DNA from: an uncultured delta proteobacterium
GTDB lineage: Bacteria; Myxococcota_A; Polyangia; Fen-1088
Assembly (NCBI GenBank): GCA_963737265.1
Contig: CAVTRY010000011.1
Coordinates: 32,001-96,000, forward strand
DNA: 64,000 nt
Reading direction: 5' to 3'
Part shown: positions 1,237-61,302 of the stretch, piece after piece
Position numbering within the stretch: position 1 is the first letter of the stretch
Layout: the number at the start of each line of letters is the position of its first letter
Program-made: the position numbers and the translations under genes
The notes under the pieces: model-generated
Databases searched by the model: none
Told to the model about the DNA's origin: nothing
Seen by the model: the letters and a program-made list of their open reading frames with translations, nothing else

Positions 1237-2172
1237 TCAAACCGTCATCAAGAAGTCTTTGTTGAGCTGATTGGACAGGTCGGCAATCCGGCCTGTGACC
1301 TCGGAAAGGAATTCGTGCAAGCCTGCTTCGAGTATTTTGTCCATGCGGGCAAAACGCAGGCGCGCTCGTAGCTCCCCAGCCAGACGCTGTGCCTCGAGGT
1401 CGCGACCGCCGGCCAATTGATCCAAGTCTTGGCAGACTTCATCCGCGCAATAGCGCAAACTACGCGGAAGCTCTGGCCGGAGCGTCAGCAGCTCCGCCAC
1501 ACGCGCGGGTTCGATGACATCGTGAAAGACTTGGTGGTAGGCGCGAAGTGCGCTCACCTGCCTTAGCACTGCACCCCAGGCGTAGTAGATGCTGGCAGGC
1601 CCGGCGTCCGGCTTGTCCGCCAGCACCTCGTACTTGACGTTGAGCACGCGCGCGGTCCCGGCCGCCCGTTCCAAAAACGTTCCCAAGCGAAGGAAGTAGA
1701 ACGAGTCGTCATGCAGCGTCGTGCTGTACGAAACGCCGCGAAACAGGTGCGAACGGTCGCGCACCCATTCGCAGAATTCACGCGACCGGGACTGATCGAG
1801 ACCGTCTGCCTCAAGGCCGCGCATGCCCAGCCACGTCCCGTTGATACTTTCCCACATTTCGGTGGAGATCACCGAGCGCAGGGCACGCGCGTTTTCGCGG
1901 GCGGCCCGCACGCAGAAGAGGATGCTCCCCGGATGGTCCTCAAGGGTGAAGTAGCGTGTGATGGCGTCAGCGTCCGCGTGACCGGCAGCAAGCTCGGGTG
2001 GGCCGCCCAAGACCGCCAGGACGCTTTGCCATTCGTCTTGCCCGCCAGCCAGGGTGGGATCCGTTGCCTGCAGGGAGATACTGCGACTCACCTCCAAGAT
2101 GCGGGCGATATTCTCCGCACGCTCGACGTAGCGTCCGGTCCAATAGAGATTCTCGGCGGTTCGGCTCAGCAT
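1237..2172 (-). CDS. Alpha-E domain protein
   Basis: MLSRTAENLYWTGRYVERAENIAR and second LGTFLERA motif, ARENAR..R..IS.EMW, PRSL; adjacent to CP ATP-grasp. Confidence 0.93.
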   Translation of the reverse strand: MLSRTAENLYWTGRYVERAENIARILEVSRSISLQATDPTLAGGQDEWQSVLAVLGGPPELAAGHADADAITRYFTLEDHPGSILFCVRAARENARALRSVISTEMWESINGTWLGMRGLEADGLDQSRSREFCEWVRDRSHLFRGVSYSTTLHDDSFYFLRLGTFLERAAGTARVLNVKYEVLADKPDAGPASIYYAWGAVLRQVSALRAYHQVFHDVIEPARVAELLTLRPELPRSLRYCADEVCQDLDQLAGGRDLEAQRLAGELRARLRFARMDKILEAGLHEFLSEVTGRIADLSNQLNKDFLMTV

Positions 2173-2206
2173 GGGAGCACCTCGCAAGTATCGGAAGTTC
2201 GGTTGG

Positions 2207-3871
2207 TCACGGCTGCAATACCCAAGTGTCCTTGGTGCCCCCGCCCTGGGACGAATTCACCACGAGAGAGTCCCGCGCAAGCGCCACCCGCGTGAGGCCA
2301 CCCGGAACGACCACGATCCCATCGCGACCCGAAAGCACGAACGGGCGCAGATCGATATGCCTTGGCGCGATCCCTTCCTCGACGAATGTGGGACAGGTCG
2401 AAAGCGCCAGCGTCGGTTGCGCGATGTAACCCTCCGGGTCTCGTTTGATGAGCTCACGGAATTTGGCTTGCTCGTCCTTGGTGCTGTGCGGGCCGATGAG
2501 CATGCCGTAGCCACCCGAGCCCTGCGTTTGCTTGACCACGAGCTCGTCGAGGTGCTCGCACACGTAGGCCCGCTCATCGGCCTTTGAGCAACAGTAGGTG
2601 GGAACATTGGCCAAGATAGGCGTTTCGTCGAGATAGAAGCGGATAAGCTCAGCGACGAAGGGATAGGTCGACTTGTCGTCGGCTACGCCCGTGCCAACCG
2701 CATTGGCCAGTGTGACGCCACCGTTGCGGTAAACGCTGAGCAGGCCAGGGACGCCGAGCACGCTCGATGGTTTGAAGGCGAGCGGATCCAGGCTGTCGTC
2801 ATCGATGCGCCTGTAGATGACATCGACCCGGCGTGGTCCGTGGGTGGTGCGCATCCACACGGCATTGTCGCGCACGAAGAGATCTTGCCCCTCCACAAGG
2901 TCCACCCCCATCTGCTCGGCCAGAAAGGCGTGCTCGAAGTACGCGCTATTGTAGGGCCCTGGCGTTAGCACCACGACAGTCGGGTCGCCATCGACGCTTG
3001 CCGGTGCGAGCGAGCGAAGACTGCGCAGAAGCTCGTGGCAATAGTGGTCCACGGGCGCCACGCGAACCTGCGAGAAGATGTTGGGGAACAGGCGCATCAT
3101 GGCGGCGCGGTTTTGCAGCATGTAGGAAACGCCCGAGGGCGTGCGCAGATTGTCCTCGAGGACATAGAACTGGTCTTCATTTACCCGAACGAGATCGATG
3201 CCTGCAATATGGACATAGACATCGCCGGGCACATCCACGTCGCGCATTTCGGGACGGAAGAGGGTGTTGCGCAGAAGGTGCGACTTTGGAACGACACCCG
3301 CGCGCACAATGTCCTGATCGTGGTAGATGTCGCGCAGGAACATGTTCAGCGCCTTCACTCGCTGTTTCAGTCCGGCGGCGACCTTGTCCCATTCTTTCGC
3401 CGACAGGACCCGCGGGATGATGTCGAATGGGATGAGGCGTTCGGTGCCGGCGCTGTCACCGTAGACGTTGAAGGTAATACCGATGCGCTGGAACATGAGG
3501 TCGGCATCCCTGCGTTTCTGCGCAAACACGCTCGATTCGGTGGATTTCAGCCAACCCGAAATGTCCCGGTAGGAAGAGCGCACCTCGGAGTCGCTTCGGG
3601 TCTCCCAGTCCGCCGCAAATGTCCCCGGCGAACCCGGACCGCACATTTCGTCAAAGGCCGTTATCGCATGGACCTCGGGTGCGACCGGCTCGCCTTCGAC
3701 TAGGACCGTCTCCACCGGGAAAGGCTTCCTCTCGCACTCGTCAGACGACGCGTCGAGTGCGTCTGCCGTCCTCGCATCGACTACCTTGTCGGGTGGTTCC
3801 GAGCCTTGAAATCTACGCCCTGTCGCTTGGCATTTCTTCCGGTACGTATCTTCTGTCGCCGCTGTCGTCAT
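2207..3871 (-). CDS. Circularly permuted type 2 ATP-grasp protein
   Basis: GITFNVY, IPFDIIPR, VLEDNLRTPSGVSY, SAYFEH, VIYRRIDD, GSGGYG, GGLTRVAL, VVNSSQGGGTKDTWV; GGAGGA RBS before ATG 3871. Confidence 0.95.
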   Translation of the reverse strand: MTTAATEDTYRKKCQATGRRFQGSEPPDKVVDARTADALDASSDECERKPFPVETVLVEGEPVAPEVHAITAFDEMCGPGSPGTFAADWETRSDSEVRSSYRDISGWLKSTESSVFAQKRRDADLMFQRIGITFNVYGDSAGTERLIPFDIIPRVLSAKEWDKVAAGLKQRVKALNMFLRDIYHDQDIVRAGVVPKSHLLRNTLFRPEMRDVDVPGDVYVHIAGIDLVRVNEDQFYVLEDNLRTPSGVSYMLQNRAAMMRLFPNIFSQVRVAPVDHYCHELLRSLRSLAPASVDGDPTVVVLTPGPYNSAYFEHAFLAEQMGVDLVEGQDLFVRDNAVWMRTTHGPRRVDVIYRRIDDDSLDPLAFKPSSVLGVPGLLSVYRNGGVTLANAVGTGVADDKSTYPFVAELIRFYLDETPILANVPTYCCSKADERAYVCEHLDELVVKQTQGSGGYGMLIGPHSTKDEQAKFRELIKRDPEGYIAQPTLALSTCPTFVEEGIAPRHIDLRPFVLSGRDGIVVVPGGLTRVALARDSLVVNSSQGGGTKDTWVLQP

Positions 3872-3940
3872 AGTTCCTCCAATCGATGCGATTTCTCGAT
3901 GCGATTATGAGCTGGCTCGCCAACCGCCAAACACCATGGG

Positions 3941-4933
3941 CTACCGATGGATCGCCCGTTCAGGGACTTCGCGCTGCCTCGCTTCGGCGCGAAACCGTCT
4001 GCGCATCTCGGCGCGGGTAATGCCGTGTTGGCGTTGGTAGATGCGAGCCAGGAGCCTTTCGAGGTCAAGCGGATCGCTCAGCGAATTCATGACCTGCTGG
4101 GGGGTGCGCCAGGCGTTCCACCCCGAGCCGTGCACCGGAATGACTCCCAAGTCCTTTGTCCCGTGCCACAAGGCCCCCTCGTGTATCGTCGCCGGCATGC
4201 GCCCAAAGGCGGCTCCAACTGAATCTGGAGACACCATGTTCCCAGCCCACAAGTCCTCGACGATCGCGGTCCGGATCGGTAGCTTGCGCCGAGCAAGTTT
4301 CCAAAGGTCAGCGGCTCTCGCGGTGAACGCGCAGGTGTCCCAAAGAGCGCCGCAGGACTTCAGCCGCCGGGCTTCCGACGGCGAGGCGCGATCGACCAGC
4401 CTGCGGACAGATAGGAGCCTGCCATCAAGTCCTCCTCCAGGAACGACGATCCGCTCGCCATTTCCCACTCCGGTCATTTCCGCACCGGCGATGATGATTG
4501 GGCTTGCGGCCAAAGCCAGGCCAACTGCGACCAACGAGCCTGCCAGCACGCTGGCCCCAGAAACATAATGGTAGGCTGGCGCCACGACTACGGCGGCCTC
4601 GGGATCGCGCACCACGACACGTCCCAAAGCGAACAGCAAGTCCACCGAGGGGCCACGGTTGAGCGGACGAGACAGGATTGCGATGCCACGCCACCGGCGG
4701 AGCTGGGTGCGAGCAAGCTCCTCATACTTCGTCGAGACGACGACGGCGATGCGCTCCCGCGGCACGAGCTCGGCGTACGACGCTACTGTCTGCTGTAGCA
4801 GCGATCCGTCACCCGCGATGAGCGCGAACTGCTTGGGCACCGCCTGGCCCGATAGTGCGCTCGTGAGCGGGAAGAGCCTTGAGTCTTCCTCTCCAGCTTG
4901 AACGATGACGTGCAGATCTCCCGCGGTGAACAT
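3941..4933 (-). CDS. Mannose-1-phosphate guanylyltransferase-like (NTP transferase fold) protein with degenerate active-site motifs
   Basis: VIVQAGEEDSRLFPLT...PKQF...SLLQQTV, RPLNRGP, GALWDT, GWNAWRTP parallel the GMP family; AAGGAG RBS before ATG 4933. Confidence 0.7.
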   Translation of the reverse strand: MFTAGDLHVIVQAGEEDSRLFPLTSALSGQAVPKQFALIAGDGSLLQQTVASYAELVPRERIAVVVSTKYEELARTQLRRWRGIAILSRPLNRGPSVDLLFALGRVVVRDPEAAVVVAPAYHYVSGASVLAGSLVAVGLALAASPIIIAGAEMTGVGNGERIVVPGGGLDGRLLSVRRLVDRASPSEARRLKSCGALWDTCAFTARAADLWKLARRKLPIRTAIVEDLWAGNMVSPDSVGAAFGRMPATIHEGALWHGTKDLGVIPVHGSGWNAWRTPQQVMNSLSDPLDLERLLARIYQRQHGITRAEMRRRFRAEARQREVPERAIHR

Positions 4934-5001
4934 GAGGACGCTCCTTTTCCTTGGGCCCTGAATCGACGCCATCGCAATGCAAGCCGGGGACCAGCAACCC
5001 A

Positions 5002-5025
5002 AGGCTTCAGGCTCCAGGCTTCAGG
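5002..5025 (+). repeat. Heptamer tandem repeat (AGGCTYC)x3
   Basis: AGGCTTC AGGCTCC AGGCTTC AGG in intergenic DNA. Confidence 0.75.
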
Positions 5026-5137
5026 TTGTCTGGTCGAGAGCGGGGAACTCCATGGCCCGAAGGAGATCGCCCCGTCGTGCAGCAAGGGGGGCGCGGTCTT
5101 CGGCGCCACGCATTGATGGGAACCTTGGAAACAAAAT

Positions 5138-5153
5138 TGGCACGCCGCTGGCA
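5138..5153 (+). promoter_or_regulatory. Putative sigma54 (-24/-12) promoter for transglutaminase gene
   Basis: TGGCACGCCGCTGGCA, correct GG-N10-GC spacing, 31 nt before ATG 5185. Confidence 0.6.
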
Positions 5154-5184
5154 TTGCTCCCATGGCAGCCAAGGGGGATCCAAC

Positions 5185-6099
5185 ATGCGTCTATCGATTA
5201 TTCACGAGACGAAATACCGCTATGCCACGCCAGCCGACTACACCATCCAGTACCTCCGGCTATCGCCGCAAACGACGCCTCAGCAGAAAGTGCTGAGTTG
5301 GAGCTTGGACCTACCAAGGCCGGCATCGCCCTTTTGCGACGGGTTCGGCAACGCCTCCCACGTTCTCGTCATCGACAAGCCTCATCACGAGATCTGCATT
5401 CGCGCGCGCGGCGAGGTCGAGGTCGAAGACTCGCCGCTCAGCCTGCCGGATATCGGACCGCTCGGCCCCGATGTCTACACGCGGTTTACGGCACTCACCG
5501 CTCAGGATGAGGCGCTTAGTCGCTTCGCGGAGACCTTTCGCCGCCAAACCACGAACAATCGCGCGGCTGGGGTCGAGGCGTTGATGTTGGCCGTGCGCGC
5601 GGAAATGGACTACCGGCCTGGCATCACTCAAGTAGGCACGACGGCGGCGCAGGCCTTTACCAAACACGCTGGCGTCTGCCAGGATCACGCGCATGTGTTC
5701 GTATCCTGTTGCCGGAGACTGAACATTCCCGCCCGCTACGTAAGTGGCTACCTCGCGCCCAAAAACAGGCCGGCGGCGAATCTCGGCCATCGGACGACAC
5801 TGGCTAGCCACGCCTGGGCCGAGGCCTGGATTGAAGGCCTGGGTTGGCAGGGGTTCGACGTGGCCAACCACACACGTGCTCACGGTCGCCACGTGCGCGT
5901 GGCCGTCGGACTCGACTATCTAGACGCGTGTCCCGTGCGCGGCTTTCACCGCGGCGGCAAGGGCGAATCTCTGGATGTGGAAGTCCAAGTGAACGAAATC
6001 GCGTGCCAGCAAGAGATCCATGCCGTGAAGCCTGCCCGCAGCCCGGAACGACAACAGCAGTATCAACGGCAGCAGCAGCAGCTTCAGCAGCAAGTGTAG
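5185..6099 (+). CDS. Transglutaminase family protein with Gln-rich C-terminal tail
   Basis: MRLSIIHETKYRY N-terminal domain; GVCQDHAH, ARYVSGY, HAWAE, FDVAN, VGLDYLDACPVRG; tail QQQYQRQQQQLQQQV. Confidence 0.93.
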   Translation: MRLSIIHETKYRYATPADYTIQYLRLSPQTTPQQKVLSWSLDLPRPASPFCDGFGNASHVLVIDKPHHEICIRARGEVEVEDSPLSLPDIGPLGPDVYTRFTALTAQDEALSRFAETFRRQTTNNRAAGVEALMLAVRAEMDYRPGITQVGTTAAQAFTKHAGVCQDHAHVFVSCCRRLNIPARYVSGYLAPKNRPAANLGHRTTLASHAWAEAWIEGLGWQGFDVANHTRAHGRHVRVAVGLDYLDACPVRGFHRGGKGESLDVEVQVNEIACQQEIHAVKPARSPERQQQYQRQQQQLQQQV

Positions 6100-15467: not shown

Positions 15468-15779
15468 GCAAACTTCACGCCTTCATCGGTGCGGCCCAGG
15501 ACGTCCGCCGCGGCGGCGTCCCAGGTAATCGGCGTCGTAGCCAGGAAGACGCTGGTCAACCACATCCCCCCGTGCCAGGCGCGTGCGGCGTTTGTCCCGC
15601 TTGGACACACAGCCCACCCAAGAAGCTTCTGCGGCCGACGGCTTCGTCTCACTTGAAGGTATTGCATATGCGTAGGATGAAGAAGCCGGCGCCGAGTGAC
15701 GGTTGCATGCGCTCGACGCAGGCCTATCTTCCAGAGCCTCATTGCTACCGCCGTCTGAAATGTGACAACATCTTCCTGC

Positions 15780-16970
15780 ATGAGGAAGAAATACGTGGTT
15801 CACCGACCACTCGCAATTGAGCGGCCCGATCTTGTGGCCGAGTGGCACCCGTCGAAGAATCTTCCGCTGACTCCATATGAGGTGACGGCGGGTATGGAGA
15901 CCCGCGTGTGGTGGAAATGCCCCAAGGGCCCGGACCACGTGTGGGAGGCGACGATCCTCGGGAGAGCCGTCCGCGGCAAGGGTTGTCCAGTTTGTGCGAA
16001 TCGCCTGGTAACCCCGAAGAACTCGCTTGCGGTTCGGGCGCCCAAACTCGCGCAAGAATGGCACCCGACGAAGAACGGCTCCGTCAGGCCGACGGACGTG
16101 GTGCCCGGTTCGGGCAAGAGGGTGTGGTGGCAGTGTCGCTTCGGCCACGAGTGGCAGGCCAGCCTCGTCCAGCGGACCAAGGTGGCCACCCGCTGTCCAT
16201 ATTGCGTGGGGTATCGGGTCACCCCCGAGCGCACGCTCGCCGCCCAGGAGCCGGCCCTGGCCAGGACCTGGCACCCGACGAAGAACAGGGAATTGAAACC
16301 GATCGACGTGGGACCGGGCACTGCCAAGAAGGTCTGGTGGCTGTGCAAACGCGGTCACGAATGGCGGGCGGCCGTTAACTCACGGGCTCGCAGGGGCACC
16401 GGCTGTCCGATGTGTGCGGGCAACAAGGTCAGCCCCGAGCGGTCGCTCGCGACCGTGGCGCCCGACGTGGCCGCCACCTGGCACCCCACCCGCAATGGAC
16501 GGTTGCGACCCAAGGATGTCATGCCGGGCACCGACCGAAAGGTTTGGTGGAAATGCCCGGTGGGTCCGGACCACGAGTGGAAGATGTCGATCGTTGCGAG
16601 GCGTATCTATTTCAGCTGTCCGTTCTGCACCAACCATCGGGTGTCTTGCACGAACTCGCTCGCCACGGTGGCAAAGAAGATCGCCCGGGACTGGCACCCG
16701 ACGAAGAACGGCAAGCTGCGACCGACCGACGTCGTGTATGGTAGCGGCAAGCTCGTCTGGTGGCGGTGCCAGTTTGGCCACGAGTGGTCTGCGACTGTCA
16801 TCTGCCGCACTCGCGGAAGCGGTGGTTGCCCGGGCTGCCGCTTCGATTCGCAACTCCAGCGCCGCCGCGAAACGCACAAGTTGCTCCCGGTCGATCGCGC
16901 GTTGTTGGCGATCGAGGAGGAAGCGCGCCGGGCGGCTTCCCGAAAACCGAACGTGAAATCGCGACGCTGA
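15780..16970 (+). CDS. Tandem zinc-ribbon (DUF4379-like treble-clef) repeat protein, 5 repeats
   Basis: Five copies of WHP[TS][KR]N...VWWxC..(G)HxW...CPxC. Confidence 0.9.
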   Translation: MRKKYVVHRPLAIERPDLVAEWHPSKNLPLTPYEVTAGMETRVWWKCPKGPDHVWEATILGRAVRGKGCPVCANRLVTPKNSLAVRAPKLAQEWHPTKNGSVRPTDVVPGSGKRVWWQCRFGHEWQASLVQRTKVATRCPYCVGYRVTPERTLAAQEPALARTWHPTKNRELKPIDVGPGTAKKVWWLCKRGHEWRAAVNSRARRGTGCPMCAGNKVSPERSLATVAPDVAATWHPTRNGRLRPKDVMPGTDRKVWWKCPVGPDHEWKMSIVARRIYFSCPFCTNHRVSCTNSLATVAKKIARDWHPTKNGKLRPTDVVYGSGKLVWWRCQFGHEWSATVICRTRGSGGCPGCRFDSQLQRRRETHKLLPVDRALLAIEEEARRAASRKPNVKSRR

Positions 16971-31514: not shown

Positions 31515-32825
31515 ATGCTTCTCCCTGTCGTCTTTCTTCCCCTGGCCGCGGTTCTCATCAACGACGCCAAGACCGACTTTTCCAATCACGCCATCACCGT
31601 CGATATCGCGACATCGGAACCAGTCCTGCGCGAGGATGTGCGTGGCGTCTCGGGTGGTCCACGCCGCTTGTACATCTATCTCAACGACACGGTGGCGAGC
31701 CATCGAGAGTTTGGCGCGGGACCCGACGCCATCGTCGTGCGCCCGCGCGCTCGTTACACCAAATTGGAGGTTCCCACGCCCGCTCGTTGCGCGGAACCGC
31801 TTTCGATCGAGCAGACGCCGGCCGGCATTCGCGTGCGGGCGACTTGCCGAGACGTCGGTCCAAATGGAAGTGTTTTTACCGCGCCTGCAGTCCTGCGAAA
31901 CACCGCGGACGCGGAGCGGCCCGAGCCGGATGCGCCTCGGTCGGCGATGGTGCGAGGTAAGGTGCACGAGGACTTGCTGAGAGCCGCGCTCGCGATTCCC
32001 CCTGGTGCGCTCGCCGCGCAAAACGCAGCGGAGGCGGCCGGAACAGACAACGACGAGCGAGCTGCCGGTAGCGGGCGGGCCAAAGACGATGCCGCCGGCA
32101 ACCCGGCGGCGCCGTCCGCACAGGCCGGGAAGCCGCTGGCGGGAGGAGTTCCTGAAAGGGCGGCGAAGGTTGGCGTCGTTGCGGTGGTGGACGCGGTGGC
32201 GGGCGGCAAGGATCCGGTCGCGACCACGGCGGTCGCGCAGCCGGACGCGCCCACCGTAGCTCTGGCCGGAACCAGCGACTCGGCGTCGGCGCCGTCCGGA
32301 TCGGGATCGGGCAAGGACGCAAATTCCGGCTCGAGTGTCGTGTCCACGGTTTTCGCGGTGGCGTTGCTGGTTGGGCTGGGTGTGGCTGCCGCCGTGCTCG
32401 CCCGTCGTCGCGTCAAGGGGAGCCGAATGATTCGCATCGTGGAGACGGCCTCGATTGGCCCCAAGCGCTCGCTGGTCGTGGCGTGCATTGGCGGACGGAC
32501 CATGGTTCTCGGCGTGAGCGAGGCGGGCGTGTCGCTGCTCGATTCGCAAGACTCGTCGCCCGTGATTTCGGAGGCGCCCGCGCACCTGCCGGCTGTGAAC
32601 GATGTGGATGCGGCGGCCGGACAGCGCGGCCAACCGTTTCGTGAAGTGGAGGGAAGCGAGCAGAAGAATGAGAGCTCGCTACTCAGTCGCCTGTTCCCGC
32701 GGAGCAAAGCCACGGCTGGGGACGACCACCGTTCGCATGATTTCGAAAACCTCCTGTCCGAGAGTCTCGAAGACGAGGAGTTGCGCCGCAAGCTATCGCT
32801 CGGCGAGGCCGGACGGGTGGCGTGA
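31515..32825 (+). CDS. fliO: FliO with long N-terminal periplasmic extension
   Basis: TM then IRIVETASIGPKRSLVVACIGGRTMVLGVSEAGVSLL; between fliN and fliP. Confidence 0.8.
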   Translation: MLLPVVFLPLAAVLINDAKTDFSNHAITVDIATSEPVLREDVRGVSGGPRRLYIYLNDTVASHREFGAGPDAIVVRPRARYTKLEVPTPARCAEPLSIEQTPAGIRVRATCRDVGPNGSVFTAPAVLRNTADAERPEPDAPRSAMVRGKVHEDLLRAALAIPPGALAAQNAAEAAGTDNDERAAGSGRAKDDAAGNPAAPSAQAGKPLAGGVPERAAKVGVVAVVDAVAGGKDPVATTAVAQPDAPTVALAGTSDSASAPSGSGSGKDANSGSSVVSTVFAVALLVGLGVAAAVLARRRVKGSRMIRIVETASIGPKRSLVVACIGGRTMVLGVSEAGVSLLDSQDSSPVISEAPAHLPAVNDVDAAAGQRGQPFREVEGSEQKNESSLLSRLFPRSKATAGDDHRSHDFENLLSESLEDEELRRKLSLGEAGRVA

Positions 32826-50963: not shown

Positions 50964-51163
50964 CTTGAGTGCATCGCGGCCCCTCCGGCGGCAAGCTCGC
51001 CGTCGGTCGGGACGGCCGCGCCACGCCTTGGCGGTGCAACTGGAAGGGCGTCCAGGGGCAAATGAAGATACTTCAAAGGCTTATCGAAAAGCAGGCCCCG
51101 TGCCGTAGCTGTATTTGAAGCCGGGCTAGGCGCCCACAGACGAAAGAAAAAAGGAGTTGGGTC

Positions 51164-52405
51164 ATGCTTTCATTGCAAACAAACGTAAGTGCGATTATTT
51201 CTCAGAACAACCTGAACACCACCAGCAATTCCCTCGGCACGGCCATGGAAAGGCTGTCGTCCGGTTACCGCATCAACCGTGCGGCCGACGATGCCGCGGG
51301 CCTCGCCGAAAGTGAACAGATGCAAGCCCAGATCGGCGGTCTGACGCAGGCGGCGCAGAACTCGCAGGACGGCATCTCTATGATTCAGACGGGTGAAGGC
51401 GCGCTGGACCAGATCCAGACCATGATGCAACGCATGCGTTCGCTGGCCGTGCAAGCGGCCTCGGACACCAACGGGCAAGCCGATCGCGATAACATCAATT
51501 TGGAGCTTCAACAGCTGGGCACGGAAATCGATAGCATCTCCCAGCTGAGCCAGTTCAACGGGCAGTCGCTGCTCAATGGTTCGTTGGTTACGTCGCAAAT
51601 TGCTGGAACCCAGGGCTGGGATGGTGCCTCGACCGAGCTGGCGGCTTCCACCACGGCACTAGGCGGCGGCGAAACGATCAACAGCGTCGACGTTGGCGGC
51701 TCGCAGCAGAATATGGGTTACAAGGTTAGTACCCAGAGCACTGCGGGAAACACCATTACTTTGACACAGGTGAATTCGAGCGGCGTGACCACCGGTCTAT
51801 CGCAGACGCTCAATCTGACGGATATCGCGGCTGGCCAGGCCGAGGCGCTAAATTTCTCGGATTTTGGCGTGAAGTTCACCGTGGGCAACGCTGCCAACGC
51901 CGCCGCGCCTGTGGCGGCCTCGACCTTGGTGACCGACCTCGGAGCCACGCTTTCGATTGACGCCGGCACTGGCGCTTCATTTGCGACTCTGCAAACTGGC
52001 TCAAATCAGGGCGATGTAACGACGGTTCAGTTCATGAGCACACGCTTGACTGGTGCGACCGGAAATGCGCCGATGGATGGCTTGGCGCAGGCGTTGAATG
52101 CCTTCAACACGACGGCTTCGGCCGACAATGCGTCGAGTCTCATCACAGCTGTCGACAACGCGCTTGGCTCCATCTCGAGCAACCGAGCCACCCTCGGCGC
52201 CGCCCAGAACCGCCTCAACTATACCATCTCCAACCTGGGGACGGCATCGGAGAACCTTCAGCAAGCCAACAGCCGCATCATGGATGTCGATGTGGCGACG
52301 GAATCGTCGGACATGGCCAAAGAACAGGTCCTGGAACAAGCCGGTGTCTCGGTCTTGGCGCAGGCGAACCAACTGCCGCAGTTGGCGCTCAAGCTCTTGG
52401 CGTAA
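51164..52405 (+). CDS. fliC: Flagellin
   Basis: RLSSGYRINRAADDAAGL, RATLGAAQNRL, SRIMDVDVA, VLAQANQ; AAGGAG RBS. Confidence 0.97.
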   Translation: MLSLQTNVSAIISQNNLNTTSNSLGTAMERLSSGYRINRAADDAAGLAESEQMQAQIGGLTQAAQNSQDGISMIQTGEGALDQIQTMMQRMRSLAVQAASDTNGQADRDNINLELQQLGTEIDSISQLSQFNGQSLLNGSLVTSQIAGTQGWDGASTELAASTTALGGGETINSVDVGGSQQNMGYKVSTQSTAGNTITLTQVNSSGVTTGLSQTLNLTDIAAGQAEALNFSDFGVKFTVGNAANAAAPVAASTLVTDLGATLSIDAGTGASFATLQTGSNQGDVTTVQFMSTRLTGATGNAPMDGLAQALNAFNTTASADNASSLITAVDNALGSISSNRATLGAAQNRLNYTISNLGTASENLQQANSRIMDVDVATESSDMAKEQVLEQAGVSVLAQANQLPQLALKLLA

Positions 52406-52931: not shown

Positions 52932-53219
52932 ATGGCTGCATCGCCCACCGAGCAGTTTCGTGAGCGTCTGCAGAGGGCCGCGGGTTTACTCGAAGTTGGC
53001 GACGTGGCGGGTGCCGCCCGCGTGGCTGCCGAACTGGATGATCTCCAAGGAAGTCTGCCACCCGCGTTGGCGCCGCGCGACCTCGCGGAGGCGCGAAGCC
53101 TTCTAGACCGGTGCGCGGAGCTTGAAAGGGAGCTACGCCAACGTGTGCTAGCGGCAATGAGGCGCCTGGGTGCGGCGCGACGGTCGACAGTCTATTGGAA
53201 CCACGGACGTAGACCTTAA
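52932..53219 (+). CDS. Small helical protein, FliT-like by position
   Basis: 95-aa helical ORF between fliS and fliD. Confidence 0.6.
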   Translation: MAASPTEQFRERLQRAAGLLEVGDVAGAARVAAELDDLQGSLPPALAPRDLAEARSLLDRCAELERELRQRVLAAMRRLGAARRSTVYWNHGRRP

Positions 53220-53243
53220 CGTTGTCGCGAGATATACCGATAA
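53216..53243 (+). promoter_or_regulatory. Putative sigma28 promoter of fliD
   Basis: TTAAC-N15-ACCGATAA. Confidence 0.72.
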
Positions 53244-53261: not shown

Positions 53262-54659
53262 ATGACCAGCATTCTATCGACGACTCCATCGACGGCGGCG
53301 CAACTGGCGTCGCTGACGAGCTCGCTTCTGCAGAGCAGTGGCGGCGTCACGTCCAGCATGAATACGACCGAGATTGTTGCGGCGTTGGTGCAGGCGGATT
53401 CGGTGCCCCTACAAAATCTTCAGCAGAAGCAGAGCGACTACCAGGTGCAGATATCGACGTTGGGGAGCTTGGTTTCGCAGTTGCAGGCGTTAGGCACGGC
53501 CGCCTCCGCATTGTCCACTGGCGGCGTGGTGCCCATGCAGGCAAGCTCGACCTACAGTGATTTCAACGTAACCGGTTCCGCACAGGCCGCGGGCAGCTAC
53601 GATATCAGTGTGACCATGCTAGCCCAAGAGGCGAAGATGCGGTCAACGAGCTATACTTCGGCGCAAGACGCATCACTGGTCCCGTCTGGGAACCTGCAAT
53701 TCAACATCGATGGCACGAATACCGCGGTCATCGACACGACAGGGAAGTCGCTGGCAGATGTCGCAGACGCAATCAACCAGGACGTACCACAGCTAACAGC
53801 GTCTGTTGTCGCTGACGGAGCGGGCAATTACTACTTGAACGTTGCCAGAAACACCACGGGCTACGCCACGACATCAAATGCGGCGCTGACCGTCGTCAGC
53901 GATCCGGGGCTGGGACTGACGGTTACGCAGAATGCTCAGAATGCGCAACTCACTGTGGATAAGCTGCCGATTCAGCGAACCACCAACACCATATCCGACA
54001 TCATACCAGGCGTTACTCTAAATCTAACCGGGCAGTCTGGGGCGGATAACAACGTGGTATTTGCCGCGAACAGCAGCGGGTCGACGGCAGCGCTTAGCAA
54101 CTTCGTCAGTGCCTACAATACCCTGGCAACGACTCTGTCCAGTCAGCTCGACGCCGACCCAACGCAGGCGTATGGAAATACCCTCATTGACTACTCGGCT
54201 GCAGCAAGTATCGAAAACTCCATGCAGCAGCTCCTTTCGCAAGTGGTCGTGCCAAGCGGAGCGGTGTGTTCGTTGGCCGACTTGGGGTTGGAATTGCAAC
54301 AGAACGGAACCCTCAATCTAAATACGACGACTCTGAACAATGCAATCGCAACGAACCCGGGTGCGGTCAATGCAATATTTTCGACCGCGACAACCGGGAT
54401 AGCCGCGTCGGTTCAGGCGCTCGTCGACAGCCAGACTAACCCAACGACGGGAGCATTGGTGAATGAGGAGAGCTCATTAAACTCGAGCATTTCCGACATG
54501 AGCACTGAAGAGACGGACATGCAAAACAACCTCAATCTGGAGCAGGCGACGCTGACCGCGCAGTTCACGGCCATGCAGCAGCTCGTGAGCAGCTTTACCC
54601 GGGCGAATAGCTACCTTACGGCGGTCCAGAGTCTCCAGAATAGCAACGCGTCGGGATAG
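53262..54659 (+). CDS. fliD: Filament cap protein FliD
   Basis: YDISVTMLAQ, AQNAQLTVD, IPGVTLNL, FVSAYN, AQFTAM. Confidence 0.93.
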   Translation: MTSILSTTPSTAAQLASLTSSLLQSSGGVTSSMNTTEIVAALVQADSVPLQNLQQKQSDYQVQISTLGSLVSQLQALGTAASALSTGGVVPMQASSTYSDFNVTGSAQAAGSYDISVTMLAQEAKMRSTSYTSAQDASLVPSGNLQFNIDGTNTAVIDTTGKSLADVADAINQDVPQLTASVVADGAGNYYLNVARNTTGYATTSNAALTVVSDPGLGLTVTQNAQNAQLTVDKLPIQRTTNTISDIIPGVTLNLTGQSGADNNVVFAANSSGSTAALSNFVSAYNTLATTLSSQLDADPTQAYGNTLIDYSAAASIENSMQQLLSQVVVPSGAVCSLADLGLELQQNGTLNLNTTTLNNAIATNPGAVNAIFSTATTGIAASVQALVDSQTNPTTGALVNEESSLNSSISDMSTEETDMQNNLNLEQATLTAQFTAMQQLVSSFTRANSYLTAVQSLQNSNASG

Positions 54660-54728: not shown

Positions 54729-54756
54729 TCAAGAAAGGCGTGCGAGCCGCCGACGG
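54729..54756 (+). promoter_or_regulatory. Putative sigma28 promoter of GT41 gene
   Basis: TCAAG-N15-GCCGACGG, 15 nt before ATG 54772. Confidence 0.6.
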
Positions 54757-54771
54757 TAGTCCCTAATCGCG

Positions 54772-56907
54772 ATGAGTACAAATGCCAAGCTGCGTGGCCG
54801 TCAGGCCGAGGTGAAGGGGCATGCCGAAAGAAGGGCGGCAAAATTCTGCGCTCAAGCCAAGGTCGCGTTGGCTCGAGGAGACTTGAACGCGGCAGAGAAA
54901 GCGTATGTCGCGGCGATAGGGCTCGGGTCTCAGGACCTTGACGCGCACAACAATCTCGCGGCGATCTATGACAAGAAGGGATCGAAGGCAGAGGAGGAGC
55001 TGGCCTTGCTGGGCAAGGCGGCTTCTCTGGCCCCTCAAAACGCACTCGTTCGGCAAAATCTTGTGAAGGTCCTGCGGAGAGAGGCGTGCTCGCTCGATCA
55101 AGCTGGTCGATTGCAGGAGGCGCTAGGGCTGTTCTTGCGTTGGGCGGAGGTCGACCCCGATTCGGCGGCAGCGCAGCGCGCGGTTGGTTACTGCTATAGC
55201 AAGCTGAGACAGTGGAGGACTGCCATCCAATACTTTACGGTTGCGATCAATCGCGAGCCAGAAAATGCGACCTACTACTGCGATCTTGGCCTGGCGTGCT
55301 TCGAGCTGGGGCTACTGGCCGAGGCGAAGGGAGCGTTTCAGCGAGTCCTAGAACTGGATCCGAAGTCGGTCTATGCGTTTACGCATTTGGGTCTTATTGC
55401 GAATCTCACGGGTATGATGTGGGTCGCCGTCAATATGACGAGGCGGGCGTTGGAAATCGATCCGAATTGCGGCCAGGCGCACAACAATTTAGCGCTATTC
55501 ATGCGGGACCAGGGCGCACTTGCCGAGTGCCGGCGCCACTACCAGGAGGCCGTTCGGCTAAGGCCCGACGACGCGAAGATATATTCCGGGTACCTCTTGT
55601 CTCTCAATGACGATCCGGACGCCGATCAGAACTGGGTAGCAGCAGAACACCGGCGATTTGAGCGAATTGTCAAGCGGAGCGGCCGTATGTTGGGCGCCCG
55701 GTCGCTGGACCCAGAAAGACGTCTGCGGATAGCGTATTTGTCTCCGGATTTTCGGACGCATTCGGTAGCCTTCTTTATCGCGGCCGTTCTTGAAGAGCAC
55801 GACCGAAGTGCCGTTGAAATTACGTGCTATGCGACTGGCAACAAGGACGACGAGATGACCGCGCGGATACGCGCCGCGGCTGAGCGTTGGCGCGAGGCGT
55901 ACAGGATGAGTGATAGCGAGCTTGCCGCTCTGATCCAAGAGGATGCTATCGATGTCATCGTCGAGCTGTCGGGTCATACGGGGAATAGCCGACTGGCAAT
56001 GCTCTCGGAACGGACCGCTCCGGTCCAGATTACCTATCTCGGGTATCCGAATACGACGGGACTGGAGAGCATGGACTACCGCATCACAGACGCCGTTGCA
56101 GACCCTGAGGGCGATGGCGACGTCTGGTGTACAGAGAAATTGGTGAGACTGGAAGGGGGATTTCTCGCGTATTCACCGCCCTCCTACGCCAGAGACCTTG
56201 AAGTCGGCGAATTGCCCTTCCGAAAAACGGGCCGAATAACTTTCGGCAGCTTCAACAATCTTGCCAAGATCAACGACAAGGTGCTTGAATGTTGGGCGGC
56301 GATTCTTGCCCGGGTGCAAGGCAGCAGAATTCTCCTTAAGGCACGCGGTTTGCGCGACGAGAGAATCAAGGAGCGGATGTTGACGGCGCTCGCCAACGGC
56401 GGCGCGATTGTGGGTGAACGAGTGTGCCTGATGGGACACGAACGGTCGATTGAGAAGCATTTGCGAATGTATAACGAGGTGGATTTGGCGCTAGACACGT
56501 TCCCATACAACGGCACAACCACGACTTGCGAAGCGATGTGGATGGGCGTACCTGTCGTGACCTTGGCGGGCCGTTGTCACGCTGGAAGGGTGGGGGCGAG
56601 CCTGCTAACAAGAGTAGGGTTGGAGGGATGGGTAGCCAGTGACCGAGCGGACTATATAGAGAAGGCTGCGTCTTGGGCAGGGAACCCCGCCGGCCTGGCC
56701 GAATTGCGCATGGGATTGCGTGAGAGACTTCGAGCCTCGCCATTGATGGATGCCAAGCGTGTTGCGCGGAGGTTGGAGGCAGTTTACCGCGAGGCCTGGC
56801 GGACCTACTGTGGAAAACCCCAAAGTGGAGGCATCCGAGCGGGGGCAAGAGGCCGCAGTGGGAACGCCGCACGTGCGGGAAATTGGGACCTTCCGGACAT
56901 CGATTAG
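54772..56907 (+). CDS. TPR-containing GT41 protein O-glycosyltransferase (SPINDLY/OGT family)
   Basis: N-terminal TPRs; RIAYLSPDFRTHSVAFF, ELSGHT, APVQITYLGYPNTTG, TFGSFNNLAK, LDTFPYNGTTTTCEAMWMGVP. Confidence 0.93.
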   Translation: MSTNAKLRGRQAEVKGHAERRAAKFCAQAKVALARGDLNAAEKAYVAAIGLGSQDLDAHNNLAAIYDKKGSKAEEELALLGKAASLAPQNALVRQNLVKVLRREACSLDQAGRLQEALGLFLRWAEVDPDSAAAQRAVGYCYSKLRQWRTAIQYFTVAINREPENATYYCDLGLACFELGLLAEAKGAFQRVLELDPKSVYAFTHLGLIANLTGMMWVAVNMTRRALEIDPNCGQAHNNLALFMRDQGALAECRRHYQEAVRLRPDDAKIYSGYLLSLNDDPDADQNWVAAEHRRFERIVKRSGRMLGARSLDPERRLRIAYLSPDFRTHSVAFFIAAVLEEHDRSAVEITCYATGNKDDEMTARIRAAAERWREAYRMSDSELAALIQEDAIDVIVELSGHTGNSRLAMLSERTAPVQITYLGYPNTTGLESMDYRITDAVADPEGDGDVWCTEKLVRLEGGFLAYSPPSYARDLEVGELPFRKTGRITFGSFNNLAKINDKVLECWAAILARVQGSRILLKARGLRDERIKERMLTALANGGAIVGERVCLMGHERSIEKHLRMYNEVDLALDTFPYNGTTTTCEAMWMGVPVVTLAGRCHAGRVGASLLTRVGLEGWVASDRADYIEKAASWAGNPAGLAELRMGLRERLRASPLMDAKRVARRLEAVYREAWRTYCGKPQSGGIRAGARGRSGNAARAGNWDLPDID

Positions 56908-58871
56908 GAAGCAGCTCGCAGCGCCTCTGGGTGGTGCTGTGGAAGAAATGAGGCGATCGGCAGCGAGCGATTAAGGAATCCAATCTGGCGGGCGAGAATT
57001 CCCTTGCGCTCGTCCGAAGACACCACGACATCCAGATAGGTGGTGGCTGTAACACCGATCGAGCGCAAATGTCGGGATTTGCCGAGATACTTCTCGCGTG
57101 GGCCGTCGGCGCCTAGGAGGGTGAGTCGCGCGGCCATCTGTTCGAATAGAGTCGGGTTGTAGGGATCCGCCACGATTAGGTGTTCGAGCAGACGGGCGGC
57201 GGCCACGGGATTGCTGCAGAAATCTGCGAGGCGAATGAGCAGATTCCAGGCGTAGGTGTTGGTTGGGTCTAGCAACAGGATCTTTTGGCTGGCGGCCTCA
57301 AGCTCCCGCACCAAAACACCGGATGCTTCCAGACGCCCCGCTGAAGCTACGGCGACCAGTGCCTCAGGTGGGGGACATAGCCGTACAACAAGGGGTACTC
57401 GGTATGCGCGGTTGCAGTCCGGACAGCTGATGCTTGCTAGCATTCCAGGCGTACCCGTGAGGGTATAATTGCGACCTTGCGCTCCGCAATAGGGACAAGC
57501 GCAGGTCGCCGTTACGACTTTGGGGTCGGAGGAATTGAGGTCAAGAAGCTTTCCGGCGAAGCCGAATGAAACGATTGCACGGCTCGTGAGCAACCGGGAG
57601 GCAAGGAAAGCCTCGTCGGACATGGAGGTCGCATTGATTTCTGAATTTCCGGAGAGAAGGTAGGCGACGGGGTCGGCGATGAGGCCGCGGGCGAGTGCGT
57701 CGTCATAGATGCGCGAACCCGGGTGATAGCCGATATTCGCGAAGCGAAAATTGTATTGCGGATGGTTGCTGAACCATTCGAGCGACTCGGTCACGGTCTC
57801 GAGCGTTTCGGCCGGATCGCCAAAGATAAGGTTAGACCAAATGCCAATCTTGGCGTCGTAGATTTGCGGCAGCAGCAGCTCCAGTTGCTGCTTCGTCGTT
57901 CGCTTCTGCATGCTCTTCAAGACCGTAGGGCTCATGCTTTCAACGCCCACGCTAATGCAGCAGCAGCCGCTATCCTTCATCAGCTTCAGAACGTCAGGAT
58001 TGAGTTGTCCAGCGGTCATCGAGCATTCCCAGCGCAGTCCGAGTTTGGCGATTCGCCGACAAAAGTCCTCCAGGCGAGAACGCTGCAAACAGAACAGGTC
58101 GTCGTAGACGAAGACAGCGTTAATCCCGTAGCGGACTACTGCCGCCTGAACTTCTGCAAACACGTCGTCAAGGGACCGCAGGCGATAGCGCCGTCCAGCT
58201 GCCTCGTGACAACAAAAGGTGCAGGAGTACGGGCATCCTCTGCTGGTCAGGATCGGCATGACCCGCGTGTTCTTGTCGACGACCAGACCTGGGGCGCATT
58301 CACCCGGACGATGCAGTCCAGCGTAGACGTCGAGGCCCAGTCCCTCGTAGTCGACCCACGGCAGCGTGTCAAGATTCTCTTCGATGAGGCGCGGCTCGGT
58401 GAGCTTGAGGACGTCGGGATTTCCGGGCTCGCGATAGATCAGGCCGTTGACGTTGAACGGTTCTTGTCCGATGGCGAGAGCGGCTGCCAGTTCCACGCTG
58501 GTATGCTCGCCTTCTCCGATGACGCCATAGTCGGCTTCGGGAACGGCATTCATGACGACCTGGGGCTGGTTGGAAACGAGTGGACCGCCGACGACGATCT
58601 TGGCGGCGGGAAGCTTCTGACGCGCTAGCGCAGCCGCGTGCTTGATTTCAGCCAGGTGGAAGGCCATACCTCCCAGCGCGACGATGTTGGGTTGGCGGCG
58701 ATCGAGCTCCTCCGACACCAAATCATCCAATGACTCGCGGGAGTGGTTGGGATTCAGGAGGACGACATCGTGGCCGGCGTGCTTGAGGCTGGCCGAAACG
58801 TAGCCAATCCCGAGGGGAAGATGGTAGGTGCCCAAATGCGTCTGTCGGCAAACGATGATTAGAATTCTCAT
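56904..58871 (-). CDS. Cobalamin-dependent radical SAM protein with C-terminal zinc ribbon and TPR-like helices
   Basis: PLGIGYVSASL and VVGGP (B12 domain), SRGCPYSCTFC, YDDLF, GVES, then CPYC...CPDC and LDPTN/ADPYNP. Confidence 0.92.
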   Translation of the reverse strand: MRILIIVCRQTHLGTYHLPLGIGYVSASLKHAGHDVVLLNPNHSRESLDDLVSEELDRRQPNIVALGGMAFHLAEIKHAAALARQKLPAAKIVVGGPLVSNQPQVVMNAVPEADYGVIGEGEHTSVELAAALAIGQEPFNVNGLIYREPGNPDVLKLTEPRLIEENLDTLPWVDYEGLGLDVYAGLHRPGECAPGLVVDKNTRVMPILTSRGCPYSCTFCCHEAAGRRYRLRSLDDVFAEVQAAVVRYGINAVFVYDDLFCLQRSRLEDFCRRIAKLGLRWECSMTAGQLNPDVLKLMKDSGCCCISVGVESMSPTVLKSMQKRTTKQQLELLLPQIYDAKIGIWSNLIFGDPAETLETVTESLEWFSNHPQYNFRFANIGYHPGSRIYDDALARGLIADPVAYLLSGNSEINATSMSDEAFLASRLLTSRAIVSFGFAGKLLDLNSSDPKVVTATCACPYCGAQGRNYTLTGTPGMLASISCPDCNRAYRVPLVVRLCPPPEALVAVASAGRLEASGVLVRELEAASQKILLLDPTNTYAWNLLIRLADFCSNPVAAARLLEHLIVADPYNPTLFEQMAARLTLLGADGPREKYLGKSRHLRSIGVTATTYLDVVVSSDERKGILARQIGFLNRSLPIASFLPQHHPEALRAAS

Positions 58872-58884
58872 TGAGGGTCACTCG

Positions 58885-59424
58885 TCAGGTCGATTGTTTG
58901 CCGGGCTTGGTTGCGATGACATTCAAACTGATGGGAATCCCTTTGAATCGCATCGCGCTCGTATCGTTGAATAGGTCGAAGCCAGAAACCCTGCGCGGAT
59001 GGGCGAATCCTGCGCGGGATAGAAAACAGGCAAGAAACTCCTCGTTGAAACCCACCAAATGGTAGTCGTGTTGGTCGATGTGGCCGCCGAACAGCATACG
59101 CATGACAAAGAACCGCTCTTCCAGCGTCAGGTCCTCCTTGACCAGAAGCAACTTGGCCAGAACTTCGAGATCGGGAACGCTGACGTAGAGGGTTCCGCGC
59201 GGCGCCAGTACGCGCGCCCACTCCTTGAGCGCGTGGTCAAGCTCGCCAGCGTAGTCAAAATGCTCAAGGGTGTGCGAGGCGTAGATCTCGGCAAAAGCGT
59301 CATCCGCAAATCTGGAGAGGTCGTTCGCATTGCCGACATGGTCTACGTGGGGGCCGGCAGTGATATTGAAGATTTCCCAGCCTGTGGCGGGAGCCGTGCC
59401 GCCGATATGAAGCTTCTTCAGCAT
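58885..59424 (-). CDS. Class I SAM-dependent methyltransferase-like protein
   Basis: KLHIGG, IYASHTLEH, EWARVLAPRGTLYVSVPDL. Confidence 0.88.
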   Translation of the reverse strand: MLKKLHIGGTAPATGWEIFNITAGPHVDHVGNANDLSRFADDAFAEIYASHTLEHFDYAGELDHALKEWARVLAPRGTLYVSVPDLEVLAKLLLVKEDLTLEERFFVMRMLFGGHIDQHDYHLVGFNEEFLACFLSRAGFAHPRRVSGFDLFNDTSAMRFKGIPISLNVIATKPGKQST

Positions 59425-59493: not shown

Positions 59494-60270
59494 TCACTTC
59501 GCAATCGCATCCAAATTGTCCGTTGCGCGAACCTCGACCACGAGATCGATGCGGCGGTTGAGCTCGCGCCCGCCCGGTGTGTCGTTGGTGGCTATGGGGC
59601 GACTGTCGGCGTATCCGGCGGCGCTTAGAAGGTTGCTTGGGATGCGGTGAGCACGTTCGAGGTAGCTGGTTACCGACGCCGCGCGCGAGGACGAAAGGTC
59701 CCAATTGTCGCGAAAACGCGCGCCGATTACCAGTGTGTCGTCGGTGTGACCCTCGATGCGGATGGGGCGGCGCAGCCGCGCGAGCTCGTCGGCAACGACA
59801 TCGAGCACTGGGATGACCTCCGGTCGAAGAGCGGCTTGCATGGGATCGAAAAAGTGAGCCACGGACAACCGCACCATCAGCTTGCGTCCGTCAATGTGCA
59901 GGGTGACCGCCGTGGTCATGCCCGGCTTCTCCACCAGGAAGCCTTTGAACTTCTTTTCCATCCGGCGACGCATGGCCTCGATGGCCTCCACTTGCTTTTG
60001 CGAGGGCTTCTCGGAGTCGGAGAGATTGGCCATGCAGCCACCTTCACTGGCTGGGCCATCGAAGATGGGCATGGTGTCCACGCCGCCCTCGCCCTTGAAG
60101 TGCATAGCGAACTTGATCGACTTCATAACGTCGATCATGCGCTTGTTGTCAATTCTGCTGGTCGAATAGAGAACGACAAAAAAGGCGAAAAGAAGGGTGA
60201 TGAAGTCGGCATAGGAAACCAGCCAGCGTTCGTGATTTTCATGGTCTTCGTGTGTTTCGCGCTTGGCCAA
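59494..60270 (-). CDS. motB: Stator protein MotB
   Basis: WLVSYADFITLL, IEGHTD, NWDLSSSRA, NRRIDL. Confidence 0.96.
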   Translation of the reverse strand: MAKRETHEDHENHERWLVSYADFITLLFAFFVVLYSTSRIDNKRMIDVMKSIKFAMHFKGEGGVDTMPIFDGPASEGGCMANLSDSEKPSQKQVEAIEAMRRRMEKKFKGFLVEKPGMTTAVTLHIDGRKLMVRLSVAHFFDPMQAALRPEVIPVLDVVADELARLRRPIRIEGHTDDTLVIGARFRDNWDLSSSRAASVTSYLERAHRIPSNLLSAAGYADSRPIATNDTPGGRELNRRIDLVVEVRATDNLDAIAK

Positions 60271-61274: not shown

Positions 61275-61302
61275 GTCTCGGCGTACCGCGGTTTCCCCTT
61301 GA
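61275..61302 (-). promoter_or_regulatory. Putative sigma28 promoter of flbD-motA-motB
   Basis: TCAAG-N15-GCCGAGAC on minus strand. Confidence 0.55.

Follow-up and report, generated by a model that had tools for sequence, protein, structure and literature searches.

Here we describe a three-gene insert in the flagellar gene region of an uncultured delta proteobacterium, located in a 64,000-nucleotide (nt) stretch of contig CAVTRY010000011.1 (assembly GCA_963737265.1, contig positions 32,001 to 96,000; hereafter, the window). As judged from its sequence, the junction between fliD and motB in this window is a compact predicted flagellin glycosylation island, in which a conserved SPINDLY (SPY)-type glycosyltransferase of family GT41 is combined with an interchangeable module made up of a small S-adenosylmethionine (SAM) methyltransferase-like protein (MT) and a B12-binding radical SAM enzyme (rSAM). 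The combination of a GT41 with a methyltransferase at fliC has been known since 2016; the new element is the rSAM, which belongs to an uncharacterised B12 radical SAM clade with a zinc-ribbon and a TPR-like tail. The features of the slot and its surroundings, in window positions, are as follows.

54772–56907, plus strand: GT41 gene, 711 amino acids (aa); TPRs and a predicted SPINDLY-type protein O-glycosyltransferase; conserved core of the island
56904–58871, minus strand: rSAM gene, 655 aa; C-terminal CxxC...CxxC zinc-ribbon-like segment, then a TPR-like helical tail; variable cargo
58885–59424, minus strand: MT gene, small class I SAM methyltransferase-like protein (Methyltransf_11), 179 aa counted from the ATG; variable cargo
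51164–52405, plus strand: fliC, 413 aa; predicted to be the likely acceptor
53262–54659, plus strand: fliD, 465 aa; left edge of the slot and predicted possible second acceptor
59494–60270, minus strand: motB; right edge of the slot
54729–54754, plus strand: sigma28-type motif TCAAG-N15-GCCGAC, 43 nt before the GT41 ATG
61277–61302, minus strand: sigma28-type motif TCAAG-N15-GCCGAG, upstream of flbD
53216–53241, plus strand: TTAAC-N15-ACCGAT, the sigma28-type site of fliD itself

The original prediction had placed three enzyme genes in the gap where two flagellar arms converge, and this arrangement was confirmed by an open reading frame (ORF) check of the window, in which all three frames are intact, and by Pfam. 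The slot is flanked by fliC-fliS-(95-aa ORF)-fliD on the plus strand and by flgE-flbD-motA-motB on the minus strand. MT and rSAM trail motB on the same strand, as predicted, with measured gaps of 69 nt (motB to MT; about 70 nt had been given) and 13 nt (MT to rSAM), and GT41 and rSAM are convergent with a 4-nt overlap. The locus has the mark of a flagellin island, an insert that carries a glycosyltransferase together with modification enzymes, and a Pfam scan found no sugar-biosynthesis genes in the slot. The genome assembly is 6.55 Mb long (completeness 99.5%, contamination 7.6%). Contigs of the public sequencing run X1, which may come from the same strain or be the source itself, span the GT41/rSAM and MT/motB junctions with zero differences, so these seem not to be misassembled, a check that concerns the assembly only; runs X2 and X3 matched nothing except unrelated conserved pieces, and no RNA run was listed among the matching ones. 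As to compositional signs of horizontal acquisition, the GC content at third codon positions of the island genes (0.66–0.70) is below the genome median of 0.78, yet the same as that of the flanking fliD and flgE.

The GT41 protein scored 168.6 bits against PF13844 (cut-off 25), with TPR families also above their cut-offs. Its nearest solved structure was the Arabidopsis protein O-fucosyltransferase SPY, likewise a member of GT41 (PDB 7y4i, 8dtf; PMC9715652), at E = 3.6e-124, compared with 6e-77 for human OGT. All ten active-site residues are shared, D326, H330, S331, N495, K499, H563, Y579 and T582–T584 being identical to SPY D491, H495, S496, N661, K665, H728, Y744 and T747–T749, which bears out the predicted SPINDLY-type assignment; in contrast to SPY, the present enzyme is bacterial, linked to a flagellum and has fewer TPRs, and its activity is predicted. 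SPY Y744, equivalent to Y579, is the residue proposed to exclude GlcNAc (PMC9715652). The gene is the only GT41 in the genome, in which we found no Maf-type match and no strong match to NeuB (a single weak one, E = 8e-8). A homologue at 55% carries the label Polyangia bacterium. Past the part that aligns to SPY, positions 56815–56907 encode a low-complexity tail of about 30 residues that reaches into the rSAM stop codon; close homologues are 659–689 aa long, compared with 711 aa here, and the tail may be read-through acquired upon cargo insertion.

To place the locus among its relatives, we compared genomes (G numbers) and loci (L numbers) that are kin rather than independent, so that the counts given are descriptive. 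Within the genus, flagellin was present in 8 of 13 genomes and GT41 in the same eight, the other five having neither. GT41 lies downstream of fliD in all eight flagellated genomes, with three intervening genes in G011 and one each in G008 and G010. Flagellin was detected in 44 of the 89 family genomes and, the assemblies being fragmented, at least 16 of the 44 have a GT41 within 15 kb of fliC; relatives with a short flagellin have GT2 or Maf genes in the equivalent place. We consider it probable that GT41 acts on flagellin. The contents of the slot beside GT41 vary among the eight genus loci, with G008 and G010 alike:

G002: GT4-like enzyme and a different methyltransferase
G008 and G010: MT orthologue alone
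G012: DegT
G005: GT4-TPR, IspD-SDR and a second GT41
G006: FkbM
G011: GT-like-TPR and a methyltransferase

The cargo of relatives is glycan-related (GT4-like, FkbM, DegT, IspD-SDR and pseudaminic-acid-type genes), and sugar-biosynthesis genes do occur in the islands of G012, G005, G020, G035 and G021. The neighbourhood survey that the original prediction had called for therefore came out in two parts: GT41 accompanies the flagellar locus throughout the flagellated genus, and the idea of a conserved three-gene cassette is not supported, GT41, MT and rSAM occurring together in just 1 of the 89 family genomes while the slot of relatives holds other cargo, chemotaxis genes or nothing.

Several GT41 loci of relatives have features of their own. 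In G035 and G020 (L011, L014), fliC and a SPY-type GT41 are separated by a full pathway of the pseudaminic-acid type that includes two formyltransferases and a deacetylase; an additional GT-like protein and an unannotated protein of 549–554 aa are also encoded there. The GT41 of G082 (L222) is 65–70% identical to that of the window, above same-genus orthologues (53–62%), and lies away from fliC with a GT-like-TPR gene, and the G080 copy (L219) is split, which suggests transfer and decay. Two second, divergent GT41s (L005:11878-14142 and L008:4833-7532) keep the catalytic Lys and have most other SPY active-site positions changed; one has C-terminal TPRs and the other is fused to FkbM. A TPR-GT41-FkbM fusion family (L015, L018, L019, L026) occurs in short-flagellin genomes away from flagellar genes, adjoined by a transglycosylase gene in three of four cases.

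The high Ser/Thr content of FliC and FliD, on which the original prediction had leaned, is correct as a number: Ser and Thr make up 21.3% of FliC (top 1.9% of 3559 called proteins of at least 200 aa) and 25.8% of FliD (top 0.6%), and the 183-aa variable region of FliC contains 46 of them. We rejected this richness as evidence for glycosylation, however, as it does not discriminate: ten short flagellins of relatives without an adjacent GT41 contain 15.8–24.1% Ser+Thr.

The proposed late expression of the three genes had been based on a TCAAG-N15-GCCGAC motif before GT41, taken to be like those of flgM and fliD. The motif is present but the likeness is not literal, since flgM reads TTAAT-N15-GCCGAC and fliD TTAAC-N15-ACCGAT, and we discarded the literal pattern TCAAG-N14-16-GCCGAH as evidence because it occurs at chance level (2 matches in the window versus 0.57 expected; at least 2 in 13 of 100 shuffles). 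Instead, we used a sigma28 matrix built from 12 flgM/fliD sites of relatives (12 of the 23 regions examined), which was seeded by a regular expression written from the observed motifs and yields absolute scores that are partly circular. On this matrix the GT41 site scored 11.2 bits, equalled or beaten by 101 of 5249 called genes, and at least 12 bits were reached before 10 of 12 fliC-linked GT41s of relatives versus none of five unlinked ones, with 10.5% of 582 control genes reaching 10 bits. The promoter site is thus supported by its conservation across relatives rather than by the literal pattern, and on these motifs GT41 is probably a sigma28-class gene. The flbD site likewise scored 11.2 bits and occupies an identical offset in 5/5 genus relatives tested (it is missing in G021); flgM, fliD, GT41 and flbD have a sigma28-type motif in common.

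For MT and rSAM, the assignment to the sigma28 class did not hold in the same way: the matrix scan found no sigma28-type site of their own in this genome, the nearest being that of flbD, from which flbD-motA-motB-MT-rSAM could be driven. Because neither gene has its own site, their late expression would depend on read-through from motB. No terminator-like site was listed in the motB–MT interval, and scans for sigma70 promoters and terminators gave no signal above chance. The MT orthologues of G008 and G010 do have a sigma28-type site of their own. At fliC itself we noted a variant late promoter (window positions 51080–51107; CTTATC-N14/15-GTGCCGTA) that scores poorly on the flgM/fliD matrix; 18 of the 20 regions tested upstream of fliC match it, with TTAAC...GTCGAA in the same register in some lineages.

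Evidence that the two cargo genes belong with GT41 came from gene fusions and from neighbourhoods elsewhere. Among longer homologues of MT, 39 of the 120 listed (out of 157) carry a GT41 catalytic domain, with the MT part mostly C-terminal, and others carry GT2, GT4 or FkbM. MT and rSAM are themselves fused, in the domain order of the window, in P0010 (74%) and P0046 (53%). MT orthologues (60–73%) occur at the flagellar loci of G008, G010 and G033 and, in total, in 6 of 89 family genomes, all six of which have a fliC-linked GT41; in G018 and G033, MT copies also lie away from fliC, adjoining a sigma54 regulator. The rSAM forms a tight clade, with 60 among the 120 matches listed being 45–90% identical. 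Clade members were found in 4 of 56 genomes from the class to which a Magnetococcales genome belongs; two of these members adjoin a GT41 (one convergently, as here) and two an MT. By comparison, 159 generic B12 radical SAM loci, of 25–34% relatives obtained by a generic-pattern locus search, included GT41 in one, MT in two and flagellar genes in none. On this sequence evidence, MT and rSAM are genuinely tied to GT41 biology, and the link is not accidental. In addition, three pairs of rSAM-clade and GT41 records are identical in the length of their longest contig (6430, 10285 and 29190; 0.29 expected, P ~0.003 by jitter), an indirect sign that relatives beyond those sampled have the same pairing; the context of the closest rSAM orthologues (P0002–P0010, P0371) is derived from these matching lengths alone.

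An rSAM was found in 2 of 89 family genomes at E≤1e-55 (up to 13 candidates scored per genome) and in 2 of 401 genomes of a phylum sample at E≤1e-58 (three candidates scored per genome); the second of the latter (G046, 33%) lies at neither a flagellar nor a sugar locus. Azospirillum plasmid matches (35–39%) fall outside the tight clade, and their flanks contain no annotated flagellar genes. A separate branch of the rSAM subfamily (32%) occupies the same flagellar slot in G021, where it closes a 35-kb Maf/nonulosonate island without GT41 on the motB side, and by its sequence it would represent a second arrival in that slot. This fliS–motB island (L021–L023) comprises Maf, GT2, NeuA/NeuB/NeuC, HisF/HisH-like, heptose and transketolase genes and two radical SAM genes. 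The Magnetococcales genome G113 (L202–L208) has 19 B12 radical SAM matches, several of which neighbour arrays of GT41 genes, a TPR-sulfotransferase, GT2s or sugar genes.

The rSAM sequence scored above the cut-offs of PF02310 and PF04055 and has the hallmarks of class B: an N-terminal B12-binding domain, a CX3CX2C motif and base-off GG and GE motifs. C213/C217/C220, GG (95–96), G119, E122 and C459/C462/C483/C486 are invariant in 56 clade members, and E120 and G121 nearly so. For fold searches we used an alignment-based AF2 model (mean pLDDT 92.1; a single-sequence fold gave 42.6). The best matches were MgmA (Z 27.6, rmsd 2.8) and AprD4 (Z 27.6, rmsd 3.0, 405 aligned), followed by TsrM, CysS, OxsB (Z 24.5) and TokK, the whole set spanning Z 21.6–27.6 at 14–20% identity. 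These proteins (MgmA 9ccb, TsrM 6wte, CysS 9n1b, TokK 7kdx, OxsB 5ul2, AprD4 6fd2) share with rSAM the N-terminal B12-binding Rossmann domain and CX3CX2C barrel, and differ from it in that rSAM has a clade-specific four-Cys segment and the TPR-like tail. The functions of these matches run from C-methylation of a protein and dehydration of a sugar to ring contraction and methylation of small molecules, so the fold does not discriminate among these chemistries. The sequence scored below every curated NCBIfam cut-off, including the named methylase families (PhpK, HpnR, KedN5, MgmA and TsrM models), with TIGR04072 the best (137 versus 360 bits). A priori, methylation is favoured, being the reaction of most members characterised so far (PMC9204698). 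In the tail, residues 505–605 align to a TFIIIC subcomplex chain (Z 11.2), 8 of the 10 listed Atlas clusters have TPR Pfams on 19–59% of their members, and other cargo enzymes at these loci (GT4, GT-like, sulfotransferase) also have TPR-like parts; the modelled tail suggests action on a glycoprotein. Overall, rSAM is likely to function in glycan tailoring.

The MT matched PF08241 at 30.6 bits (cut-off 21.2), a domain carried by 96–100% of members in the top Atlas clusters, and against the PDB only weak matches were obtained (best E = 0.0064). A 214-aa Methyltransf_11 protein of G002 was ruled out as an orthologue (E = 0.029).

From these features we propose a scheme of three steps. In the first, which we hold with good confidence, sigma28 would turn on GT41 late in flagellar assembly, and the GT41 TPRs would bind unexported FliC, and perhaps FliD, in the cytoplasm, where a single O-linked sugar would be placed onto Ser/Thr. 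In the second, the donor would be a small nucleotide sugar from housekeeping metabolism, similar to GDP-fucose and not UDP-GlcNAc; this is suggested by the retained gatekeeper Tyr of SPY, by the lack of sugar-pathway genes in the island and by an fcl–gmd pair located elsewhere in the genome. This step is tentative, with a chance slightly below even. The pair lies about 390 kb off on the same contig, with gmd above its cut-off and an fcl-like gene that is below the NCBIfam cut-off and has GDP-L-fucose synthases as its best PDB matches, and a fucose-sized donor is plausible from sequence. In the third step, which becomes somewhat favoured if the first is correct, MT and rSAM, co-transcribed behind motB, would form one interchangeable tailoring module for the sugar: MT would add an O- or N-methyl group, and rSAM would take a hydrogen from a sugar carbon, most likely C-methylating it from methylcobalamin, possibly on the glycoprotein via the TPR-like tail. 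Relatives would exchange this module for others, and the filament surface would vary as a result. The reading we prefer is that the filament glycan is the target of all three enzymes and that rSAM is most likely a methylase, although this falls a little short of an even chance. The most specific version of it is unlikely in full: SPINDLY-type O-fucosylation of flagellin from housekeeping GDP-fucose, O-methylation by MT and then C-methylation of the protein-bound sugar by a TPR-docked rSAM, by a mobile GT41/MT/rSAM module found also in Magnetococcales and Burkholderiales. Were it true, the product would be an O-glycan branched at carbon and formed on the protein through radical reactions.

A number of observations weigh against the preferred reading, beyond the rarity of the trio and the missing promoter motifs of MT and rSAM. 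With respect to the donor, XcOGT and TtOGT, the donors of which are not known, also have the gatekeeper Tyr; gmd is present in 12 of 13 genus genomes irrespective of flagella and was not found in the flagellated G010 (86% complete). As for cofactor and catalysis, CobS was not found in the genome, so that cobalamin would need to be imported (ten B12-binding matches suggest that the organism uses it), and motif I of MT reads LHIGG, 98–99% conserved in 121 sequences, without the usual acidic residue; the canonical class I motif I is D/E-x-G-x-G-x-G. In the sister genus, the fliD–motB junction of nine genomes is empty in four, contains chemotaxis-type genes in four (in G080 by Pfam) and has GT41 with DegT in one, and five of the nine have no GT41 match despite the same long FliC. 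We had considered a rule that long FliC needs GT41, which held in a 61-genome sample and broke on these five. Of five distant members of the rSAM clade, none has a flagellar gene in its 4.5–20 kb flanks. The fifth (G816) comes from an order that includes a Paramagnetospirillum genome, in which 1 of 401 genomes had a clade member; neither GT41 nor MT adjoins it. Two Magnetococcia rSAM–MT pairs (L210, L212) are flanked by gspF/gspG pseudopilin genes on one side and by a gene for pyruvate phosphate dikinase on the other; at these two loci a pseudopilin is a possible substrate.

Some of the same observations favour an alternative in which GT41 glycosylates flagellin and MT–rSAM is a mobile module in an insertion hotspot, directed at another cytoplasmic glycoprotein, a nucleotide sugar or a surface glycan. 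Because chemotaxis-type genes occupy it in the sister genus, the junction evidently accepts unrelated inserts as well; the distant clade members have no flagellar neighbours; sugar or transferase genes are often found near generic B12 radical SAM genes (41 of 103 loci of at least 10 kb, versus 20 of 314 own-genome tiles), and flagellar genes at none of the 159 loci; and the MT copies of G018 and G033 stand beside a sigma54 regulator, off fliC. We nevertheless judge this alternative unlikely, given that fusions join MT both to GT41 and to rSAM, that the genome has one GT41, that sigma28-type sites precede the MT orthologues of G008 and G010, and that a second rSAM branch was recruited into the same slot in G021.

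The same island could also be tailored by an rSAM that is not a methylase and that deoxygenates or rearranges the sugar, by AprD4-like 1,2-diol dehydration or OxsB/HpnJ-like ring contraction, leaving methylation to MT alone. The dehydratase AprD4 ties as the best fold match and OxsB is close, which speaks against methylation, and the non-methylases HpnJ and BchE are among the top NCBIfam matches, all far under cut-off. The methylases MgmA, TsrM, CysS and TokK, however, score about equally, the cobalamin GG and GE motifs are conserved, and no gene like that of AprD3, a reductase, is present in the slot. Several B12 radical SAM enzymes do not methylate, although most of those characterised do (PMC9204698), and on balance we regard non-methylase chemistry as rather doubtful.

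That rSAM, and perhaps MT, modifies the flagellin polypeptide itself, by an MgmA-like residue C-methylation parallel to glycosylation, is improbable. The protein glutamine C-methylase MgmA ties as the top fold match, the C-terminal helices of rSAM are TPR-like and FliB-type flagellin methylation islands exist (PMC4875605), but members of the clade and subfamily lie among genes for glycosyltransferases and sugar enzymes, TPRs also occur on the presumably glycan-acting GT4, GT-like and sulfotransferase cargo, and a Z of 11 for a helical repeat is inside the stated background of the tool. Equally improbable is a regulatory GT41 of the nucleocytoplasmic type known from plant SPY and OGT, with flagellar regulators or chaperones in the cytoplasm as its substrates instead of the filament: SPY does modify intracellular proteins (PMC9715652), non-flagellated family members hold unlinked GT41 paralogues and GT41-dependent flagellin glycosylation was not found in the literature searched, but in several genera GT41 stands next to fliC/fliD or diverges from them, GT2- or Maf-type genes occupy its place where it is missing, and in G020 and G035 it is accompanied by full sugar pathways.

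The architecture of the island is itself ordinary. SPINDLY-family (COG3914) GT41s are reported from the flagellin islands of 198 enterobacterial strains, in 194 of them as a fusion with an AdoMet domain (De Maayer & Cowan 2016, PMC4875605), and the earlier view that GT41 is unusual for flagellin is therefore not supported. As far as the accessible part of that paper goes, those islands are the same in having a variable insert by fliC/fliD, a COG3914 GT41 and SAM methyltransferases, and the glycosylation role is predicted there as well; they differ in that here MT is a separate gene, the radical SAM enzyme has a B12-binding domain, sugar-synthesis genes are missing and the host is of Polyangia type. 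Its supplement lists Sam1 and Sam2, which are radical SAM genes of the SPASM type, along with a GT2–radical SAM fusion; no B12-binding entry was found there under the terms searched. Two TPR and GT-B enzymes that glycosylate an appendage subunit provide further parallels: Caulobacter FlmG, which binds flagellins via its TPRs and glycosylates them, transferring pseudaminic acid (PMC7591256), and the GT41 Ogt of Synechococcus elongatus, encoded near pilA and needed for pilin glycosylation with GlcNAc (10.1101/2021.07.06.449578). In contrast to the present locus, no radical SAM partner is reported for either in the accessible parts of these papers.

In literature covering few subscription papers, we found neither a biochemical test of GT41-based flagellin glycosylation nor a paper that ties a cobalamin radical SAM to a flagellin glycan, and our searches turned up no B12 radical SAM acting on a protein-linked sugar. 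On aminoglycosides, GenD1 C-methylates a sugar, as GenK is described to do. With three genes, one flagellin and no island sugar pathway, the locus is a small, reconstitutable system, most islands with such enzymes having many genes, and it could be used to ask what is transferred by SPY-type enzymes of bacteria and what role B12 radical SAM enzymes play in glycan loci. Should rSAM prove to act on a sugar already attached to protein, glycan tailoring would gain a new kind of reaction, and sugar C-methylation a possible tool.

Three further observations concern the window beyond the slot. The 95-aa ORF in the fliS–fliD interval (52932–53219) has no Pfam match but is 37–50% conserved in relatives at the position of FliT, and is probably a divergent FliT. 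An ORF at 15762–16970 contains five DUF4379 treble-clef zinc-finger repeats, and a cluster of Alpha-E, circularly permuted ATP-grasp and transglutaminase genes occupies positions 1237–6099.

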